Below are positions 50,088 through 58,388 of a stretch of 64,000 nt of DNA, piece by piece; position 1 is the stretch's first letter; the number at the start of each line of letters is the position of its first letter. Source of the stretch: Escherichia coli (GTDB lineage Bacteria > Pseudomonadota > Gammaproteobacteria > Enterobacterales > Enterobacteriaceae); NCBI RefSeq assembly GCF_003334305.1, contig NZ_QOWS01000018.1. One strand, given 5' to 3'. The notes under the pieces are model-generated. The model did not search any database. It saw nothing but the letters and a program-made list of their open reading frames with translations, and was not told the origin of the DNA. Position numbers and translations under genes: made by a program.

Positions 50088-50693
50088 TTAGCCGTTAAGT
50101 TTAACTGCCAGACCTGCGACATATTCCCCTTGATAACGAGCAATAGACAGTTCTTCCTGGCTTGGCTGGCGTGAGCCGTCACCGCCTGCGATGGTTGTTG
50201 CGCCGTACGGCGTACCGCCGCGAACCTGTGAAACGTCAAATAATTCCTGCGCTGCGTAGCCAATGGGGACAATTACCATGCCGTGATGCGCAAGGGTCGT
50301 CCAGGTTGAAGTAATAGTTTGTTCCTGACCGCCGCCAGTACCGGTGGAACTAAAGACGCTCGCCAGTTTTCCGTATAGTGCGCCGGAAGCCCACAGGCCG
50401 CCCGTCTGGTCGAGGAAGGTACGCATTTGACCGGACATGTTGCCAAAGCGGGTAGGTGTACCAAAAATAATGGCGTCGTAATCGGCCAGTTCTTGCGGGG
50501 TTGCAACCGGTGCAGTTTGCGTTTTACCGCCTGCTTTTTCAAATAATTGCGGCGGCATGGTTTCCGGTACACGCTTAACGACAACTTCTGCGCCATCCAC
50601 TTTGCTTGCACCCTCAGCGACTGCGCGTGCCATCGTTTCAATATGTCCGTACATGGAATAATAAAGCACTAGTATTCTTGCCTTAACACTCAT
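50088..50693 (-). CDS. wrbA: NAD(P)H:quinone oxidoreductase WrbA with element-derived N-terminus (201 aa; MSVKARI replaces K-12 MAKV)
   Basis: Track ORF 50088..50693; identical to remembered WrbA from [21 protein letters not shown] onward; first 7 codons, RBS and promoter lie in inserted DNA. Confidence 0.9.
50663..50669. other. Left junction (attL) overlap sequence AAAGCAC
   Basis: Point where wrbA sequence changes from K-12-like to foreign; same heptamer at right junction. Confidence 0.6.
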
Positions 50694-50744
50694 ATCATTG
50701 TTCTCCTGTTCAATGAACCACTTAGATAAGCATAGTCCGAAGAT

Positions 50745-52388
50745 ATGAAGCTGCTAGTGACATACATCAGGTGGAGTACTAAAGAGCAAGACTCAGGAGA
50801 CTCCTTAAGACGACAAACAAACCTCATTGATGCTTTCTACTCTAAGCACAAAAACGATTATTACCTTCTTCCTGCTCACAGATACGTTGATAAGGGTAAA
50901 TCTGGTTTTCACCAGCAACATAAGAATCAAGGTTCTGACTTCAGACGTATGTTTGAAAATGTTATGTCTGGGGCTATTCCAGAAGGTTCCCTGATTGTTG
51001 TAGAGAACTTTGACCGCTTCAGTAGGGCTGATATCGACACAGCTATAGATGATGTCAGGCAGATACTGAGGAAGGGAGTCTCTATACTGACTCTGGGAGA
51101 TGGTGAACTCTACGACAAGTCAGCATTAACAGACCCTGTGAAGCTGATTAAGCACATCATCATAGCTGAGCGAGCACATCAGGAATCTCTTGTTAAACAA
51201 AAGCGTATAGCTCAGGTCTGGAACCATAAAACACAGCTTGCAAGAGAACTTAAGAAGCCTATGGGTAAGCAAGCCCCCGGATGGTTAGAGCTATCAGAAG
51301 ACGGTTCACACTACATCGTTGATGAAGATAAAGCGTCACTGGTGAATATCATCTATGACAAGCGTCTTTCTGGTATGTCGATGTTTGCTATCTGCAAATG
51401 GCTAAACGAACAAGGTTACCCGACCATTAATCAGCGTAAGGTCAGAATATCCAAGACTAAGAAACCGGATGGTAACTGGTCAGCTTTAAGCGTTAAACAC
51501 ATCCTGACTTCACGAAGTGTATTAGGTTACCTTCCCGCTAAGATTTCTACAGAAGACCGTAAAACAGTGTTACGTGAAGAAATTGAAGGGTTCTATCCTC
51601 AGATTGTCACAGATTCTAAGTTTTACGCTGTACAGCAACTGTTAGAGGAAACAGGGAAGGGGAAAACATCCAGCGGTGACCACTGGTTATACGTGAACAT
51701 ACTGAAGGGGCTTATCCGTTGTAAGTGTGGGCTTGTAATGACTCCTACAGGGATACGTAAACCCGTTTATCAAGGTACTTACCGTTGCAATGGTAATAAG
51801 GAGTCCCGTTGTAGCTACGGTACAGTGTCCAGAAAGTTACTTGATACACAGCTTTGTAGTCGTCTGTTTAGCAAACTGTCACAGCTACACGATGAAGCTA
51901 CCGATACAGCTAAATTAGATGAACTACAAAGAAGATTAAACACCGTTGATGGTGAACTGGAAAAACTCACTGAGACGCTGATACAGCTTCCTAACATCAC
52001 TCAGATTCAAGAAGCACTACGGGTTAAACAGGAAGAAAAAGATGAACTGATAGTTCAGTTATCACGAGAAAAGGCGAGGGTAAAATCTGTATCAAGCTTG
52101 GATTTAAGCGGTCTTGATATGGAGTCTGTAGAGGGGAGAACTGAAGCCCAGATTATCATTAAGCGTCTGGTGAAAGAGATTGTTGTTTCTGGTAATGAAA
52201 AGCTGGTGGATATATATCTTCACAATGGAAATATGATTCGTGGTTTCCCTCTTGATGGTAAAGATGACCACACCTTAACGCTTGAAGAAGCAACCGATGA
52301 GATGCAGTCACTAGATGATATGCTTATTTTTGGTGAACCAGTAACAAGGATTTATCCTGCTGGTGATATGGAAGAGGTGGACGCTTAG
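50745..52388 (+). CDS. Large serine recombinase (integrase), 547 aa
   Basis: N-terminal resolvase catalytic motif YIRWSTKEQ, central recombinase region, Cys-rich zinc-ribbon (CKCGLV...CNGNKESRC) and coiled coil; lies next to the junction. Confidence 0.85.
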
Positions 52389-53173
52389 TATTTTTTATTA
52401 GGGTTCACTGAGTACTTTTTAAGCTTTGAAGCTACTCGACCAGCGTTACTATTAGCATTGGTGACGTTGGTTTTTTCAGCTTCTGTTAAGTCTGAATAGT
52501 CCAGCTTCCAAGCCTTATTACACTTAATCTGAGCATCGAGAATATCATTTCTGATAGCTGGAGCGTAACCGGATACATCGCTAATACTCATTAGCTCTTT
52601 GCACGATAGCATAGGCGCGTTATTGCGTTCAGTGGTCACGTTACCTGCATTCTTCTTACTGGTCACACCACCATCATTCGTAGTCGCGGCTTTTCCAGTT
52701 GCAGCCGAGATATCAGTCTGCCCCACAACAGCTTTGAAGTTAATTTCCTGAAAAGTTAGTTGGATTCTTAATCCGTTTGAAATTCCAACATCTTTAGAGG
52801 CTTTAAAACTTGTGATAATGGAATCATCAATTTTAATTCCGTCTTTACAGATGACAGAAATAATCTGCTTCTGGTCACGCCAGTTTTCCAGAGTGTCAAT
52901 GAAGTTCTCTACTAATTGACCCTGACGAGTTAATAGTAAGCTTCCTTCATAACCAACTACAACGACACCACTGATAGTGATTGTTCTGGGTGCTCTTTGA
53001 ACATTATCTGTGACGGTTTGCCCTGATTGCATGTTCTGTGTAGTCACCTGCATAGGGCTATCAAATTCCATATTTTCAGTTGCTGATAAGGTTAAGAAGG
53101 CATCTACATTATCTCTTAAGTGGAAGTAAACGCCATCTTTGCCACTGTAGCGGATTTGATTGCTAAAAATCAT
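52385..53173 (-). CDS. Hypothetical protein (262 aa), downstream of the tape-measure-like gene; own copy of a shared promoter cassette
   Basis: Track ORF 52385..53194 (TTG); I prefer ATG at 53173 preceded by AAAGGAG; no recognizable motif; position would suit a distal tail protein but unproven. Confidence 0.6.
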
Positions 53174-53253
53174 TAAATTCTCCTTTGATTTCAAAGGCTT
53201 AGTGTATTTTAATCATTTTTAACCAAGCCTTTGATATATAAGTATTTTCTCTG

Positions 53254-53322
53254 TTAAGCGTGAGCTACGTAAATTCTATTTTTCAGTGCGGGTATTAACT
53301 TTGCTTTATTCACGTAGAACAC
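53254..53322 (-). promoter_or_regulatory. Promoter/5'-UTR cassette copy 1 (about 70 bp, repeated at 55517-55585)
   Basis: 34-bp identical core TAAGCGTGAGCTACGTAAATTCTATTTTTCAGTG plus flanks; contains inverted CTACGTAAA/TTCACGTAG. Confidence 0.55.
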
Positions 53323-53329
53323 CGTTAAA

Positions 53330-55498
53330 TCAATCATCTTCTGGGAATGATGAACTTAATAACGTAGCTTCTGCATATTGGTCGTAGATATTACTGCTAA
53401 AGGTCATAAAGCTGGTTTCATCTGGTTTAATGGCAACTTCACCACCAAGTGAAACTTTCACAGGCTCCTGAATACGCTTACTTAAAGCAGAGATTTCATC
53501 CCTCAGACCCTGAATATCTGCACTCGTTAATGCTGAATCTTGCTTAATGTTGTTTAATTCTGGATGATTGAATCTTGCAATATTCATTGTGGCATTGTTA
53601 AACAATTCACCCATTGAACTAAAAATTCTACTCCATCCTTCGTTAATCACATTCGGTTTATTAGGGTCACCAGAATACACAGGATTAAAGTCACTACCCA
53701 CACCTACCCCAGATGGATGCATATTAGCGTTTTTGACTACTTCCTGATTCATAAAATCCAGTGCTTTCTTCAATGCATATAAACCAAGAGTGACACCTCT
53801 GATTTGTGGAATCATTGAAGCTAATGCTAACGCTGTTTCATAACCGTCATCAGCATAACCAATTGCAAGAGCACTACCTACACCACCAGCTACACCTTTC
53901 AGTTTTCCACCACCTTTACCAGTAGCTACCTGACCAGCCACCTGATTAGCTCTTGTACCTAACGTTGTGATTGCTCTTGTCAGGTTCATAACCCCTGTAG
54001 TAGCACTGAATAGTGTCTTTGCAGATAACGCTATAGCAAGACCTTTGACGAAGTTGATAAATCCATCACCGACTTCATCAAGTAGCTTTCGCTTAGTGTC
54101 ATCAAGGCTGTAATAGGTCTTCTTAATCTGTAGAATCCAGCCTTCAAGGTGATTGTTAAAGATACGGATGTCATCTACACCAGCTTTAAGCATGTCGATA
54201 AGTCCACCGATAGCATCACCAGCGATAGAAGAACTCATACCCATTTCACTAAGCAGGTTACTCAGGCTGGATAAGAAGCCATTTAGCTCATCCTGTGAAC
54301 CTGAGAAGATTTTCACCATCGTATCATCCCAGTTGTTAGCCAGTTTCCCTAAAGCTGTCTGAGTGCTCTTAGCGACTTCAGCCCAGCCACCCGCTTTATC
54401 AATCATCAAGCCCATCTGTTTAGCGACTTTAGGGAGAGTATCACTACTTAAAATCTTCCCGTCTTTCATCGCTTTATCAAGCTCTGTAGCAGTCATACCC
54501 AGTGCTTCAGCGAATAGCTTAAATGCACCAGCCATACGGTCACCTAACTGACCACGAAGCTCTTCAGCCTGAATCTTGCCCTTGCTCGCCATCTGCTCAA
54601 ATGCTTTCAAAATGCCGTTTAGCTCATCGTTAGAAAGCCCCATTAAGCGACTCATAGCCGTTGCATTACCAAATAGCTCCTGTGTCTGTTCCTGTGACAT
54701 AGAACCCTGAGCACCTGCTGCAAACTTAGCGTAGCTTGATAGCCCTTCAGAGATATTAAGACCTGTCTTGTCTGCTAAATTTCGAATAAATACCTCAGCT
54801 TCAGATGCTTTATCACCAAGTACAAACTTAGCGGCTCTCTGTGCGGAATCTCGTTTAAGACCTGCATTCATGATGGCCTTGTAAGCGTTAAGAGCACCCA
54901 TCACAGAGTAAAATGCACCAGATAACTTGATTGCATTGCTTGCAAGATTATTAAATGCGTCGCTTGTATTGTTAATGCTGGTGGATGTATGACCTTTAGC
55001 TTTAGCAATTGCTTCTCTGACTGAAGCATTTAACTGAGTCAGCTTCTCATTGAATTTTGAAGAATCCATTGACCCAGCTTTAGCAGATAGCCCGTAAAAC
55101 TGAGATTTGATGTATTTCTGCAAAATAGGGTCAAAGCCTTTTAGCTTAGACATATTAGCTGAGTAAGCCGCTGTGATTGCTCTGTTGCCGCTAATTCGTG
55201 GCTGTCTTGGTTGTCTAAGTGGCTTTAAAGTGTCATCAATTTCCGTTTTAATCTTAAACGCTCTAGTGTTTTTAAGACGCTGCTCAATCTTGGAAACAGT
55301 TTTATCGACATTCTTTTCCATTAGTTTGAGAGAATCATTTAAAGGCGTAGGGTTAACTCTGAATGCCTTATTTAGTCGTTTCTCAATTCTTGATGCGATT
55401 TGCATCGTTTGTTTCTCGGCTTTTTCCAAGCCTTTTAAAACTTTCTGAGAGCTAAAACTTAGCTCAATCAAAAAATCATCAACTTTAAATTGTGCCAT
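53330..55498 (-). CDS. Tape-measure-like protein (722 aa), alpha-helical Ala/Gly/Ser/Leu-rich
   Basis: Track ORF; region GLSNDELNGILKAFEQMASKGKIQAEELRGQLGDRMAGAFKLFAEALGMTATELDKAMKDGKILSSD resembles phage tail tape-measure core; RBS AAGAGGTGA before ATG. Confidence 0.6.
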   Translation of the reverse strand: MAQFKVDDFLIELSFSSQKVLKGLEKAEKQTMQIASRIEKRLNKAFRVNPTPLNDSLKLMEKNVDKTVSKIEQRLKNTRAFKIKTEIDDTLKPLRQPRQPRISGNRAITAAYSANMSKLKGFDPILQKYIKSQFYGLSAKAGSMDSSKFNEKLTQLNASVREAIAKAKGHTSTSINNTSDAFNNLASNAIKLSGAFYSVMGALNAYKAIMNAGLKRDSAQRAAKFVLGDKASEAEVFIRNLADKTGLNISEGLSSYAKFAAGAQGSMSQEQTQELFGNATAMSRLMGLSNDELNGILKAFEQMASKGKIQAEELRGQLGDRMAGAFKLFAEALGMTATELDKAMKDGKILSSDTLPKVAKQMGLMIDKAGGWAEVAKSTQTALGKLANNWDDTMVKIFSGSQDELNGFLSSLSNLLSEMGMSSSIAGDAIGGLIDMLKAGVDDIRIFNNHLEGWILQIKKTYYSLDDTKRKLLDEVGDGFINFVKGLAIALSAKTLFSATTGVMNLTRAITTLGTRANQVAGQVATGKGGGKLKGVAGGVGSALAIGYADDGYETALALASMIPQIRGVTLGLYALKKALDFMNQEVVKNANMHPSGVGVGSDFNPVYSGDPNKPNVINEGWSRIFSSMGELFNNATMNIARFNHPELNNIKQDSALTSADIQGLRDEISALSKRIQEPVKVSLGGEVAIKPDETSFMTFSSNIYDQYAEATLLSSSFPEDD

Positions 55499-55516
55499 TG
55501 TTCATATTTCACCTCT

Positions 55517-55585
55517 TTAAGCGTGAGCTACGTAAATTCTATTTTTCAGTGTGGGTATTAGCTTTACAGATTTCACGTAGCACAC
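55517..55585 (-). promoter_or_regulatory. Promoter/5'-UTR cassette copy 2
   Basis: Same repeat as 53254-53322, immediately upstream of the 722-aa gene. Confidence 0.55.
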
Positions 55586-55699
55586 ATAGGATTCGATAGA
55601 AGACTATCTCATATACAAAAAAGGAGAGTTACCGATGTCACTCGATAATCTCTCCCGTAGATTTTTACCCAACCAATTCTATTAGAAGCTAATCTCAAA

Positions 55700-55915
55700 T
55701 TAATGGTAAACGTAAGAATACATCCCATCATCACCTAAAATCTGTGCGTCACATGGTAATTTATCTAAGCACCATGAAGGAATCTTACGTACCTTTGGTT
55801 TATGTGAGGTGATAACTTGATGCTGATTTTTAATTCGTAGCTTTGGTTTAGTCTGAAGCTTTAAGTTCTCACAAACAGACTTAATAAGTTCATAGCGTTC
55901 TGTTAAATCAATCAT
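55700..55915 (-). CDS. Hypothetical protein (71 aa)
   Basis: Track ORF; 23 nt downstream of the 236-aa gene. Confidence 0.45.
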   Translation of the reverse strand: MIDLTERYELIKSVCENLKLQTKPKLRIKNQHQVITSHKPKVRKIPSWCLDKLPCDAQILGDDGMYSYVYH

Positions 55916-55938
55916 TCACCACCTCTTTTAATTCATAG

Positions 55939-56649
55939 TTAAAGTGCCTTGCTATATTTCTGAGAAATCTTCACTAACTGCTCAATATCAGCCTGCATAG
56001 CAATCTTCTTCTGCGTTTCATATGCAGAAATAAGCTCTTTCATAGCCTGAAGCTCTCTTGAGAGATACAACTTAACATTTTCAAGTTGCTTGTTACGTGA
56101 TGCCAAGATGTTCTGTCTGGCAAGTTCAGCGAGTTCTTCATCGCTCTTATTAGTCGTGTAAATAAACTGACCAGCACCCCTTGAAGCTTTAACCATCTTC
56201 ACAATTCGATATCCAGCAGGAAGACTACTAATCACGGCTGCGACGTTTTCTTGAAAAGTACCAAAACCATCATTGTCTTCGTATGTGAAGTAAACATACG
56301 GCTTCTGTGACAATTCATCCTGAATCTCAAATTCTGACGGCTCAATAGCTGATTGCATCAGGGTAACTTTACTGTAAGCATCATCTAGTTTAATACGCTG
56401 TGCTTTTAGCAGTGGGTAATATTCACGCTCAAGCTCAAGTAATGCTTCAGTTTTGCATACATCAGGCATCTCTTGAGGCTCAGGAGACACAAAGATGATT
56501 TCCTTTGGTGACATTCGGATTTCTTGCTCAAGCTTAATTCTTTCATCGTGTTCTTTACGCTGAATAGCGATAGCTGGATGTTCAGTCTGTGGCGACCAGT
56601 CACCGAAGCTATCAATCACTTTGCCATTAATGTAAATATCATTTGTCAT
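55939..56649 (-). CDS. Hypothetical protein (236 aa)
   Basis: Track ORF; no recognizable motif; downstream of a consensus promoter with about 350-nt leader. Confidence 0.6.
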   Translation of the reverse strand: MTNDIYINGKVIDSFGDWSPQTEHPAIAIQRKEHDERIKLEQEIRMSPKEIIFVSPEPQEMPDVCKTEALLELEREYYPLLKAQRIKLDDAYSKVTLMQSAIEPSEFEIQDELSQKPYVYFTYEDNDGFGTFQENVAAVISSLPAGYRIVKMVKASRGAGQFIYTTNKSDEELAELARQNILASRNKQLENVKLYLSRELQAMKELISAYETQKKIAMQADIEQLVKISQKYSKAL

Positions 56650-57008
56650 TGTTTTTTCCTCTTCTAAGCTAAAGTATTTCAGTTTTTAAAAAGCACACCT
56701 GACAGCCTATCTAAACTTAGAAGAGACTTAAAAGGCGGTTTGCCAAGTATGCTTTTTAAAAGCTGAAAAAGCCCTAGATAACTAAAACGCTATAAAGGGC
56801 TAAGGTGAAGAAATTAAAACATCTAAAGGATTCAATAACGAATGAACAAAGACTTTTCGAGATAGCCTCTCAGGTTGTATAAGAGGCCATGTAGCGAAAA
56901 GCATTGCACCTTTCAGAATGTTCGGTATAGAACATACCTCACCAACTCAGAATATCCATCCATCGGATTATTGAAATAAATAAGAGAGAAATTCTCTCTA
57001 TAATTAAA

Positions 57009-57037
57009 ATTATGTCATGCTTAAGGTTATTTGTCAA
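57009..57037 (-). promoter_or_regulatory. Near-consensus sigma70 promoter (TTGACA-17-CATAAT) reading toward the 236-aa gene
   Basis: Minus strand: TTGACA at 57032-57037, CATAAT at 57009-57014; palindrome AGAGAG-N5-CTCTCT at 56983-56999 near +1. Confidence 0.6.
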
Positions 57038-57062
57038 CAGCTTTTTAACAGATTGGTAACAT

Positions 57063-57128
57063 TTATACTTTAATAGATGCACCTGCAATCATACCAATCA
57101 ACACAAAACAGAGAATCACCAATTCCAT
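57063..57128 (-). CDS. Candidate 21-aa hydrophobic peptide, translationally coupled (TAATG) to the upstream 107-aa gene
   Basis: MELVILCFVLIGMIAGASIKV; ATG overlaps the preceding stop; not in track (too short). Confidence 0.25.
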   Translation of the reverse strand: MELVILCFVLIGMIAGASIKV

Positions 57129-57451
57129 TAATGCACCACCTTCGAATCCGTAACCAGAATATTATCGCTGTACAAAATTGCTATAGCCGCCTTGAGATAT
57201 TTTTCAGGGCTAACGCTGTATTTGTTCGTTTGCTCGACAACCAATCTTTTCATGTTGCTGTCTTTAATTGGTAGCATCATTCGAGGCTCGTTAAACTCCA
57301 CCGACTGAATAAAGTCAGAGATGCTTTCCGCATTATCAGTCATTAACTCTAACAACTTATCAAAGTCAATGCTAACACCTACATCAGTGAAAGCCTGAAT
57401 CATCATGGCGGTGTCGGTATCAATAAAAATCTGTAATTCGTAATTGTTCAT
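57128..57451 (-). CDS. Hypothetical protein (107 aa)
   Basis: Track ORF 57128..57484; I prefer ATG at 57451 preceded by AAGGAG-9nt. Confidence 0.55.
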   Translation of the reverse strand: MNNYELQIFIDTDTAMMIQAFTDVGVSIDFDKLLELMTDNAESISDFIQSVEFNEPRMMLPIKDSNMKRLVVEQTNKYSVSPEKYLKAAIAILYSDNILVTDSKVVH

Positions 57452-57606
57452 TTTTAAAATCTCCTTTTTACCAGACCTCCTCAATCGCTCTGTAACGAGC
57501 TAAACAGTCTTTTTCAGGGGTAGCCTGTACAGTGGTATTACCCACCCTAAAATAAGATAGTTTTTTGCGTCAGAATGCGATTGAGAGCGTCTGAGAAGCT
57601 GTTTTT

Positions 57607-57894
57607 CTAATTTCTCTTAAAGTCTCGGACTTGCATAAGATTTTTTGGTCTGGTATCGGCTCTGTTACCATTTCGATGGATAATTTGCTTGTTGGATTGA
57701 TAGCCATGATAAAGAAACCAGACAACATATTTCACGTAGAAAGTATATCGGCCTATATTAAATGTTTTGTTGCCGTAGTCGTCGGTGTTTATCGTGACTG
57801 ACTCTCCATCAGACCAGCACAGGGAATCACTGGATTCATCATAGATAAGGTGTTCTGCAAAATATCTTCTAACATCTTCATTCCAAGGTTTCAT
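57607..57894 (-). CDS. HNH endonuclease-like protein (95 aa)
   Basis: KYVVWFLYHGYQSNKQIIHRNGNRADTRPKNL matches the HNH_3-type pattern; ATGA overlap with upstream ORF. Confidence 0.65.
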   Translation of the reverse strand: MKPWNEDVRRYFAEHLIYDESSDSLCWSDGESVTINTDDYGNKTFNIGRYTFYVKYVVWFLYHGYQSNKQIIHRNGNRADTRPKNLMQVRDFKRN

Positions 57895-58106
57895 AAAACC
57901 TCCTCACCCCAATAACCTAATTCAATCTTGTGACGCTCAAACCATTCCGGTTTAACTGCTGTTTTCAGTACTTCATTTGGGCCAATGGCTTTAATGAAAA
58001 TATCTTTTGAGTTATGGATGTCACCGAATCCGTTTCCTTCAATCAGGAGGTCGGAGATGTAGCGAATCATTTTATCCGTGTGGTATTCAAAGGTAACGCA
58101 TAGCAT
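57891..58106 (-). CDS. Hypothetical protein (71 aa)
   Basis: Track ORF; coupled between the RHH-like and HNH genes. Confidence 0.5.
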   Translation of the reverse strand: MLCVTFEYHTDKMIRYISDLLIEGNGFGDIHNSKDIFIKAIGPNEVLKTAVKPEWFERHKIELGYWGEEVL

Positions 58107-58387
58107 TAAACCTCCAGAGACAGCTTGTGAATCTTAAGACTCAATAGACGGGCAATATCAATTTTAAAGCCGTTAAGTCCCTTCAAAGTATCTAAAGCGT
58201 CCTGAGTAATTCGGATGTGTTTACGACCTTTAGAGACTGGATATTTAAGTAAATCCGACTCAGTAACCTCTTTAGCAATTGCAAGCTGCATAACAGTCTG
58301 ATGAGGTAAGTTAGTAGCTCGTTTAATTCTGGCAAGCTCGTTAAAAGCTTCCTCTGAAATGCGGGTTAAAGTGTGTTTGTTTTTCAT
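58106..58387 (-). CDS. Ribbon-helix-helix-like small DNA-binding protein (93 aa)
   Basis: N-terminal TLTRISEEAFNELARIKRATNLPHQTVMQLAI resembles RHH (CopG/Arc) fold pattern. Confidence 0.5.
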   Translation of the reverse strand: MKNKHTLTRISEEAFNELARIKRATNLPHQTVMQLAIAKEVTESDLLKYPVSKGRKHIRITQDALDTLKGLNGFKIDIARLLSLKIHKLSLEV

Positions 58388-58388
58388 T

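Follow-up and report, generated by a model that had tools for sequence, protein, structure and literature searches.

PLEs, which integrate by means of a large serine recombinase, parasitise ICP1, a virulent myophage of V. cholerae (PMC11838301). They encode a tail assembly chaperone (TAC), a tape measure protein (TMP) and a baseplate-hub protein (BhuB) that are 19 to 41% identical to the ICP1 versions (Mathur et al. 2025, PMC11838301). In PLE particles the PLE TMP and hub protein replace those of the phage and the tails are 10 nm shorter, and deletion of the PLE tmp gene lowers transduction by 96 to 99.9% (PMC11838301). Here, we describe an 11.9-kb island of Escherichia coli that carries its own TMP gene next to a gene for a tail tube initiator (TI). 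The island occupies positions ~50670 to 62617 of a 64,000-nucleotide window (the whole stretch of DNA that was analysed, from contig NZ_QOWS01000018.1) and coincides with a low-GC stretch from ~50.7 to 62.6 kb.

The island, known from sequence alone, is like the PLEs in being small and integrative, in having a large serine recombinase and in its link to a virulent myophage. It also resembles them in having a partial tail-initiation module, in which the TMP is 20 to 40% identical to that of the putative helper, is somewhat shorter and adjoins a baseplate-hub-complex gene. Unlike the PLEs, it belongs to another host genus, is linked to another helper family and differs, as far as tested, in gene content: it has no recognisable TAC, a TI takes the place of BhuB, and neither a TcaP-like capsid scaffold nor RepA nor nuclease effectors were recognised in it. 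The EPIP satellites of Mycolicibacterium (bioRxiv 10.64898/2025.12.02.691453) share with the island a serine integrase and a TMP of their own, and tails of altered length have been seen with them. However, EPIPs are unrelated actinobacterial elements with a temperate siphophage helper, and they also carry genes for a major capsid protein, a scaffold, head-tail adaptors and a small terminase. Satellite-encoded tape measures are already published, for PLE, EPIP and some cf-PICIs (PMC11838301; bioRxiv 10.64898/2025.12.02.691453). The P4-like, PICI and cf-PICI satellites are helper-dependent chromosomal islands of E. coli of similar size, but their helpers are temperate, complete tails are hijacked, and none of their hallmarks (tyrosine integrase, alpA, pri-rep, terS, sid/psu/delta or capsid) was found among the island proteins with PHROG, NCBIfam and Pfam.

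Tape measure protein and tube initiator

The TMP gene is an open reading frame (ORF) of 722 codons on the minus strand (53330-55498) with an ATG start. The identity of its product as a TMP was already annotated before this analysis: RefSeq lists, at identical coordinates, a 'tape measure protein' (WP_097343993.1; E. coli A7, NZ_CP028767.1). A first-pass annotation of the window had likewise called the protein tape-measure-like, and had proposed a profile search against tape-measure families and a look for intact phages carrying the same gene. The profile matches bore out the call. PHROG 4036 matches the protein at 7.8e-90, and ten other TMP PHROGs match as well. Pfam TMP_3 (PF20155) matches residues 230 to 394 (6.1e-20), TIGR02675 scores 58.9 bits against a cut-off of 21.35 (4.5e-16), and PDB chain 9ndy_F, the 'Tape measure protein (gp017)' of the Felixounavirus Bas63 virion, matches from end to end (1.9e-70). 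With tblastn, 50,697 phage records yielded full-length matches only in the Ounavirinae (27 to 32% identity), including Felixounavirus JH2, SP116, ESCO56 and others, all of which are myophages of ~86 kb. The Ounavirinae TMPs cover island residues 1 to 722 and are collinear with them at ~30% identity (722 versus 742 to 747 amino acids [aa]). Taken on these matches, the 722-aa protein is a true, intact phage tail tape measure protein, which would be expected to occupy the tail-tube lumen and set tail length.

The adjacent gene (52385-53173, minus strand) encodes a protein that RefSeq names 'phage baseplate protein'. Its product matched PDB chain 9ndy_A, the 'Tube initiator protein (gp018)' of Bas63 (2.7e-114), and is 73% identical to JH2 gp087. 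In Felix O1-like phages TI is the gene directly after TMP, and the island keeps this order. The TMP is therefore not quite the orphan without a tail module that had been described in the first pass, nor is it correct that the element lacks a baseplate gene; TMP and TI form a two-gene mini-module. The rest of the tail module is indeed absent, as are the capsid, terminase and major tail genes that the same annotation had failed to find. A PHROG scan and a six-frame tblastn against the complete genome of the Felixounavirus phage vB_EcoM_H12 (hereafter H12) revealed no gene for capsid, terminase, portal, sheath, tube or fibre in the island, and TMP and TI were all that the island had in common with H12. 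As judged from these searches, the virion genes of the island are two consecutive genes predicted to form the core of tail-tube initiation, and no others.

The Bas63 virion offers a structural frame for this pair. In Bas63 the TI hexamer adapts the C3 hub to the C6 tube and consists of a tube-like fold with a C-terminal extension of ~100 aa that passes through the baseplate, while the last 25 residues of the TMP contact the hub and the puncturing apparatus (PMC12609058). Bas63 gp17 and gp18 are full-length homologues of the island proteins in the same order (TMP, 722 versus 742 aa), with the N terminus and C-terminal tip of the TMP conserved. They differ in that Bas63 is an 86-kb lytic phage, whereas the island is a 12-kb chromosomal element with a serine integrase; in that the TMPs are only ~30% identical; and in that island-specific sequence stands in place of the baseplate-spanning extension of TI. 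The two phage TMP chaperone genes are also absent from the island, and a 156-nt spacer with a repeated element lies between its TMP and TI. The 71- and 236-aa proteins encoded upstream of the TMP (here p71 and p236) are unlike the phage chaperones, whereas TI follows downstream as it does in the phage.

Island family, selection and exchange with phages

DNA of TMP and TI was present in 467 of 5,426 complete E. coli genomes, always in the chromosome and at up to five places per genome. A matching order over ~11 to 12 kb was found in every context opened, namely, the island of the window (A7 in the comparisons below), three RefSeq genomes, two metagenome/Logan contigs and a further contig that includes chromosomal flank. 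The order runs from a small recombinase through variable cargo, an initiator or ORFan, small ORFs, an HNH gene and genes for proteins of ~108, ~236 and ~70 aa to TMP, TI and the large serine recombinase. At least three attachment (att) sites are occupied, in wrbA, in yecE and near ompW/yciA, each by islands with their own intact recombinase (547, 507 and 506 aa, respectively). More than 120 distinct full-length variants (713 to 726 aa) of the island TMP type were recovered from E. coli, Shigella and E. fergusonii. A species-range scan with two narrow N-terminal peptide patterns added only E. albertii and one Escherichia sp.; it is uninformative on Salmonella and other genera.

Sister islands are designated L008, L009, L011 and L014. 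In the yecE-site island L008 (E. coli WCHEC025943, 10635-11863) IS2 interrupts the TMP gene and ISEc12 the integrase gene; some family members are thus decaying, though most of the TMPs seen are intact. Two contigs are exactly one island long, L014 (Logan SRR29490185, 11,437 bp) and L011 (an ENA metagenome scaffold, 11,874 bp). L014 ends ~25 to 30 bp into wrbA on both sides. Branching of the assembly graph would give such ends if the sample contained occupied as well as empty (or excised) sites, so that they do not prove excision.

Comparison of close island alleles gave dN/dS values of 0.15 to 0.16 for TMP, against 0.146 for a phage pair, and of 0.06 to 0.13 for TI. Both proteins are therefore maintained under purifying selection. 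This bears on whether TMP and its neighbour could be left over from a once-complete temperate phage and have no present function, a decayed prophage being one of the options of the first-pass annotation. A small phage-derived region beside an integrase, with many hypothetical genes, has the look of such a remnant, and insertion sequences do interrupt some family members, as in the TMP of L008. Nonetheless, we regard this origin as highly improbable. The conserved layout at three or more att sites, the intact integrases, the number of distinct full-length TMP variants and a dN/dS of 0.15 all speak against it. Phages of the Felix O1 group are lytic, and no integrase is annotated in the complete H12 genome; because the only phage relatives of the TMP are virulent Ounavirinae, the island is not a remnant of a Felix O1-type prophage. 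The island backbone, moreover, was found in none of the 50,697 phage records.

The TMP sequences carry marks of mosaicism. Island and phage TMPs are 59% identical over residues 1 to 40, 75% over residues 305 to 344 and 70% over the last 10 residues (LLSSSFPEDD versus LLSSSYPEEE), with 0 to 45% identity in the remaining segments. Among islands, TMP types diverge by 44 to 56% overall and yet can have near-identical ends: the N and C termini are then 95 to 100% identical and the middle is 18 to 50% identical.

In TI, the pattern follows the domains. The TI gene shares with H12 a 519-bp stretch of 94.8% identical DNA, and the N-terminal tube-like domain of the protein is 93 to 95% identical to that of phage TIs, whereas the C-terminal ~75 aa are island specific and fall into two types. 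At the DNA level, the N-terminal domain of A7, L008 and L009 is 87 to 94% identical to phages, compared with 92% between phages, and so lies inside the range of phage alleles, while that of L014 and L011 is only 74 to 79% identical to phages. Both L014 and L011 nevertheless carry the TMP type of A7 and a C-terminal TI extension that is 96 to 99% identical to that of A7. Over the C-terminal ~75 aa, amino acid identity is at least 86% within one island type and 27 to 49% between island and phage. The tube-like domain thus appears to have been repeatedly homogenised with phage alleles, with the baseplate-spanning extension kept island specific. This pattern implies that Felixounavirus genomes and the islands come together in shared host cells and recombine there, and that selection keeps a functional difference from the phage protein.

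Such exchange also fits a role for TMP and TI outside the virion, either in superinfection exclusion at DNA entry or as a reservoir for recombination of tail alleles, with a 69-nt direct repeat that brackets the TMP gene serving as a cassette-exchange device. The strong mosaicism of TMP between islands, the repeat itself and the evident island-phage exchange in TI speak, circumstantially, for this reading. However, exchange has so far been seen only in the N-terminal domain of TI, and no phage in the 50,697 records has an island-type TMP (best identity, 36%). Superinfection exclusion, which the first-pass annotation had named, has no positive evidence, the TMP having no feature of a membrane-anchored exclusion protein beyond those of phage TMPs. 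We consider a non-virion role improbable.

Possible chimeric or poisoned tails

On present analysis it is somewhat probable that the island is a PLE-like satellite or an anti-phage island which, through TMP and TI, makes chimeric tails with, or poisons the tails of, a Felixounavirus helper. A satellite-encoded protein that redirects a helper tail is also the best supported of the three possibilities raised in the first pass, and the PLEs of V. cholerae provide an experimental precedent. Upon infection by a Felixounavirus, the island would express TMP and TI. The conserved C-terminal tip of the TMP (..LLSSSFPEDD) would dock into the hub and puncturing apparatus of the phage baseplate, and the phage-identical tube-like domain of the island TI would form a hexameric ring and nucleate polymerisation of the phage tube. 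The outcome would be a chimeric tail with an island-specified core. Because tail length is ~0.15 nm per TMP residue (PMC9040626), such tails are predicted to be ~3 to 4 nm shorter with the 722-aa allele and ~8 to 10 nm shorter with alleles of 679 to 692 aa. They could serve particles that contain the island (satellite transfer), could divert and poison helper tail assembly (host protection), or could do both, as in PLE. The exchange of DNA with phages points indirectly to co-occurrence with the helper.

On a more specific formulation, the islands would be the first family of satellites of a virulent phage to be recognised in E. coli. They would be functional analogues of PLE, present in about 1/12 of complete genomes, that put their own TMP and TI in place of those of Felix O1-like myophages, building chimeric tails and lowering helper yield. 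We hold this version tentatively and place it just short of probable.

Several observations weigh against the satellite. No capsid-size, small-terminase or pac function was recognised in the island. A 12-kb genome in the capsid of an 86-kb phage would need capsid remodelling or concatemer packaging, for which no gene was identified. Unlike in PLE, no TAC homologue was found beside the TMP: neither BLASTP nor hhalign related p71 or p236 to the two phage chaperones, and the structure model of p236 is a coiled-coil hairpin that has no TAC match. The leftward string of sister islands opens with a gene for a lambda-O/DnaD-like replication initiator (E ~1e-10), but in the island of the window that slot holds a 184-aa ORFan (58389-58943), whose product has no Pfam match and no similarity to the sister-island initiator. 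Island-like DNA was not found in the 50,697 phage records, and matches in IMG/VR resemble provirus calls in isolate genomes (taxon-style contig names) rather than virome particles and give no sign of packaging. The promoter and non-coding similarities described below are short and could be incidental.

The same facts can be read as pure anti-phage defence, with TMP and TI as dominant-negative look-alikes that give dead-end, non-infectious tails and protect the clone, the island not being transferred by the phage. The combination of phage-matching interaction surfaces (the TMP ends and the tube domain of TI) with island-specific remainders fits a decoy, and the failure to detect packaging and capsid functions sits well with it. 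So does the variable cargo, which resembles that of defence islands in including an HNH nuclease and an orphan methyltransferase. Interference with tail assembly is documented for Tai (PMC11364771), Tab (PMC10884400) and Rta (PMC11838301), which, like the island under this interpretation, represent attacks by mobile elements on phage tail assembly. However, these known inhibitors are small proteins rather than full-length structural homologues of tail components, and none matches the island in sequence. No family in PADLOC matched the pair, and purifying selection over the whole 722-aa TMP, the initiator of sister islands and the phage-like non-coding elements exceed what a decoy would require. 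Decoy defence and satellite transfer thus fit the same data, and sequence analysis does not separate them; we judge the purely defensive version unlikely.

Other island features and significance

The coordinates of the island features are collected in Table 1. Positions 1 to 50000 of the window are ordinary core chromosome, from fabA to agp. The island lies in codon ~6 of wrbA and replaces the first five wrbA codons. The wrbA ORF (50088-50693) is intact, with an island-supplied start at 50693 and the N terminus MSVKARI... instead of MAKV. The original start codon persists at 62630-62632, and the K-12 wrbA 5' end is present intact at 62618-62632. The flank from 62611 onward matches that in records of wrbA-integrated Stx1 and Stx2 prophages, where the chromosome resumes at the same base. 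An integrase in common with those prophages was considered and rejected, the best phage homologue of the island serine integrase being 29% identical to it. The orthologous recombinase of L014 has the Pfam domains Resolvase and Recombinase. Judging from these junctions and domains, the island is integrated in wrbA by its large serine recombinase.

Table 1. Positions of island features in the 64,000-nucleotide window
Feature	Position	Strand	Basis or remark
attL core, left copy of the 7-bp direct repeat AAAGCAC	50663..50669	.	In wrbA; sequence reading
Large serine recombinase (island integrase), 547 aa	50745..52388	+	phrog_95 integrase, 5.2e-78
TI, 262 aa (269 aa from alternative TTG start at 53194)	52385..53173	-	PDB 9ndy_A
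69-nt direct repeat, copy 1, just upstream of TI and downstream of the TMP stop	53254..53322	-	88% identity between copies (repeat search)
TMP, 722 aa	53330..55498	-	Profile matches, PDB 9ndy_F, full-length phage alignment
TMP ribosome-binding site	Upstream of the 53330-55498 gene		AGAGGTGA, plausible by reading the sequence
69-nt direct repeat, copy 2, just upstream of TMP	55517..55585	-	
Terminator-like hairpin between the p71 gene and TMP	55617..55656	-	GGGAGAG...CTCTCC, then T6; direct reading
p71, conserved basic 71-aa protein directly upstream of TMP	55700..55915	-	Kept in 6/6 aligned islands
p236, conserved 236-aa ORFan	55939..56649	-	Long antiparallel coiled coil and small alpha/beta domain (predicted)
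Best sigma-70-like promoter, upstream of p236-p71-TMP-TI	57009..57037	-	TTGACA-17-CATAAT, 11/12 matches; consensus match only
Leftward gene string: 118/107-aa ORF, HNH endonuclease (57607-57894), 71-aa ORF, 93-aa ORF, 184-aa ORFan (58389-58943)	57128..58943	-	
Divergent sigma-70-like promoter pair, head of leftward gene string	58994..59059	.	
Orphan N6-adenine DNA methyltransferase, variable cargo of the island family	59972..60640	-	phrog_111, 9.5e-25; PADLOC oMTase, 7e-9
Non-coding stretch, short H12 matches (left end of record)	60769..60867	+	32/36 (E 6e-5), 16/16, 21/23
~12 GGTNN pentamers, conserved box ending GTAGCCACGTTAAAAATC and terminator hairpin	61215..61340	+	~90-bp element at 61215-61308
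Small serine recombinase/invertase-like protein, 183 aa, far end of island	61542..62093	-	phrog_125, 1.9e-57
attR core, right copy of AAAGCAC	62611..62617	.	Original wrbA start codon and promoter region follow

On the minus strand, the genes for p236, p71, TMP and TI form one string. p71 had no PHROG, NCBIfam or Pfam match and no similarity to phage TMP chaperones. The RefSeq name of p236, 'transposase', is unsupported, as no Pfam, PHROG, NCBIfam or transposase-like structural match was obtained; the protein is an island-restricted coiled-coil ORFan, in which a chaperone-like or scaffold-like activity might be sought. A scan with PADLOC-DB 2.0 revealed no known defence system in the island; the only hit was to the orphan-methyltransferase model (7e-9), and TMP, TI, p236 and p71 had no match.

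The non-coding share of the island is ~2.4 kb (20%), and its non-coding regions are large and repeat bearing. No known RNA family was found by an Rfam scan at E <= 0.1. The 69-nt repeat that brackets the TMP gene contains the dyad CTACGTGAA...TTTACGTAG and a TAGAAT -10-like box, and it is kept in L011 and L014. It may act as an operator or activator-dependent promoter, or else as a site of cassette exchange. That it is a phage promoter was rejected, since the element is absent from the phage genome. Extra TTYACGTAG half-sites occur at 57731 and 62290. The hairpin downstream of the p71 gene escaped the hairpin scan because its loop exceeds 8 nt. The total number of sigma-70-like promoters in the scan was not above that in shuffled sequence. 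Beside the divergent promoter pair, a non-coding region of ~1 kb holds two 76-nt direct repeats (59484-59559 and 59579-59654; 91% identity, 95 nt apart), and this repeat region (59484-59654) may be an origin or operator.

Two further non-coding elements resemble phage DNA. The GGTNN/GTAGCCACGTTAAAAATC element is homologous, at 72 to 79% identity, to an intergenic repeat_region downstream of the DNA ligase gene in ~150 Ounavirinae genomes, those of Felixounavirus and of its relatives of the Sf17 and SUSP1 types. In the island the element stands between a sigma-70-like promoter (61143-61170) and a terminator hairpin (61313-61334). Not all sister islands have it, and the fold z-score of the region is only -1.65. 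Positions 61177-61340 (plus strand) may encode a small RNA of ~160 nt or form a protein-binding array that mimics the phage element. The H12 matches (60769-60867 and also 58964-58981), which are significant though short, fall within the first ~500 bp of the H12 record, the left end of which is a non-coding array, ~1 kb long, of YTAACAR motifs. On these matches the stretch at 60769-60867 could mimic a cis-acting site of the phage for packaging or replication. A direct terminal repeat, which would have anchored such mimicry, is absent from the H12 record, and the lead is weak. The motif (AAGCnA)ATAACCCCAGARAGGG occurs in island non-coding DNA at 59689-59714 and 59908-59933 and in H12 at 87343-87365, near its right end.

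Our literature search found no paper that joins Felixounavirus or Ounavirinae with phage satellites, or a serine-recombinase island at wrbA or yecE with a TMP. The Escherichia island family, its Felix O1-like link, the pairing of TMP with TI and the domain-wise pattern of exchange therefore appear undescribed in the literature searched. Detailed knowledge of satellites of strictly lytic phages is confined to PLE and ICP1, and satellite tape measures were reported only in 2025. If the proposal is true, the existence in E. coli of a second such family, common and unrelated to the first, would make the rewiring of tail initiation through TMP and TI a general satellite or defence strategy. The family would be a tractable model, because the virion structure of Bas63, the genetics of E. 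coli and large collections of phages are at hand. Both wrbA and yecE, where islands of the family sit, are classical integration sites of Stx phages, and the mosaic pattern shows that chromosomal islands and virulent phages continue to exchange DNA. The islands would also help to explain strain-level resistance to Felixounavirus and would constitute a hidden determinant of host range for typing, biocontrol and therapy phages.

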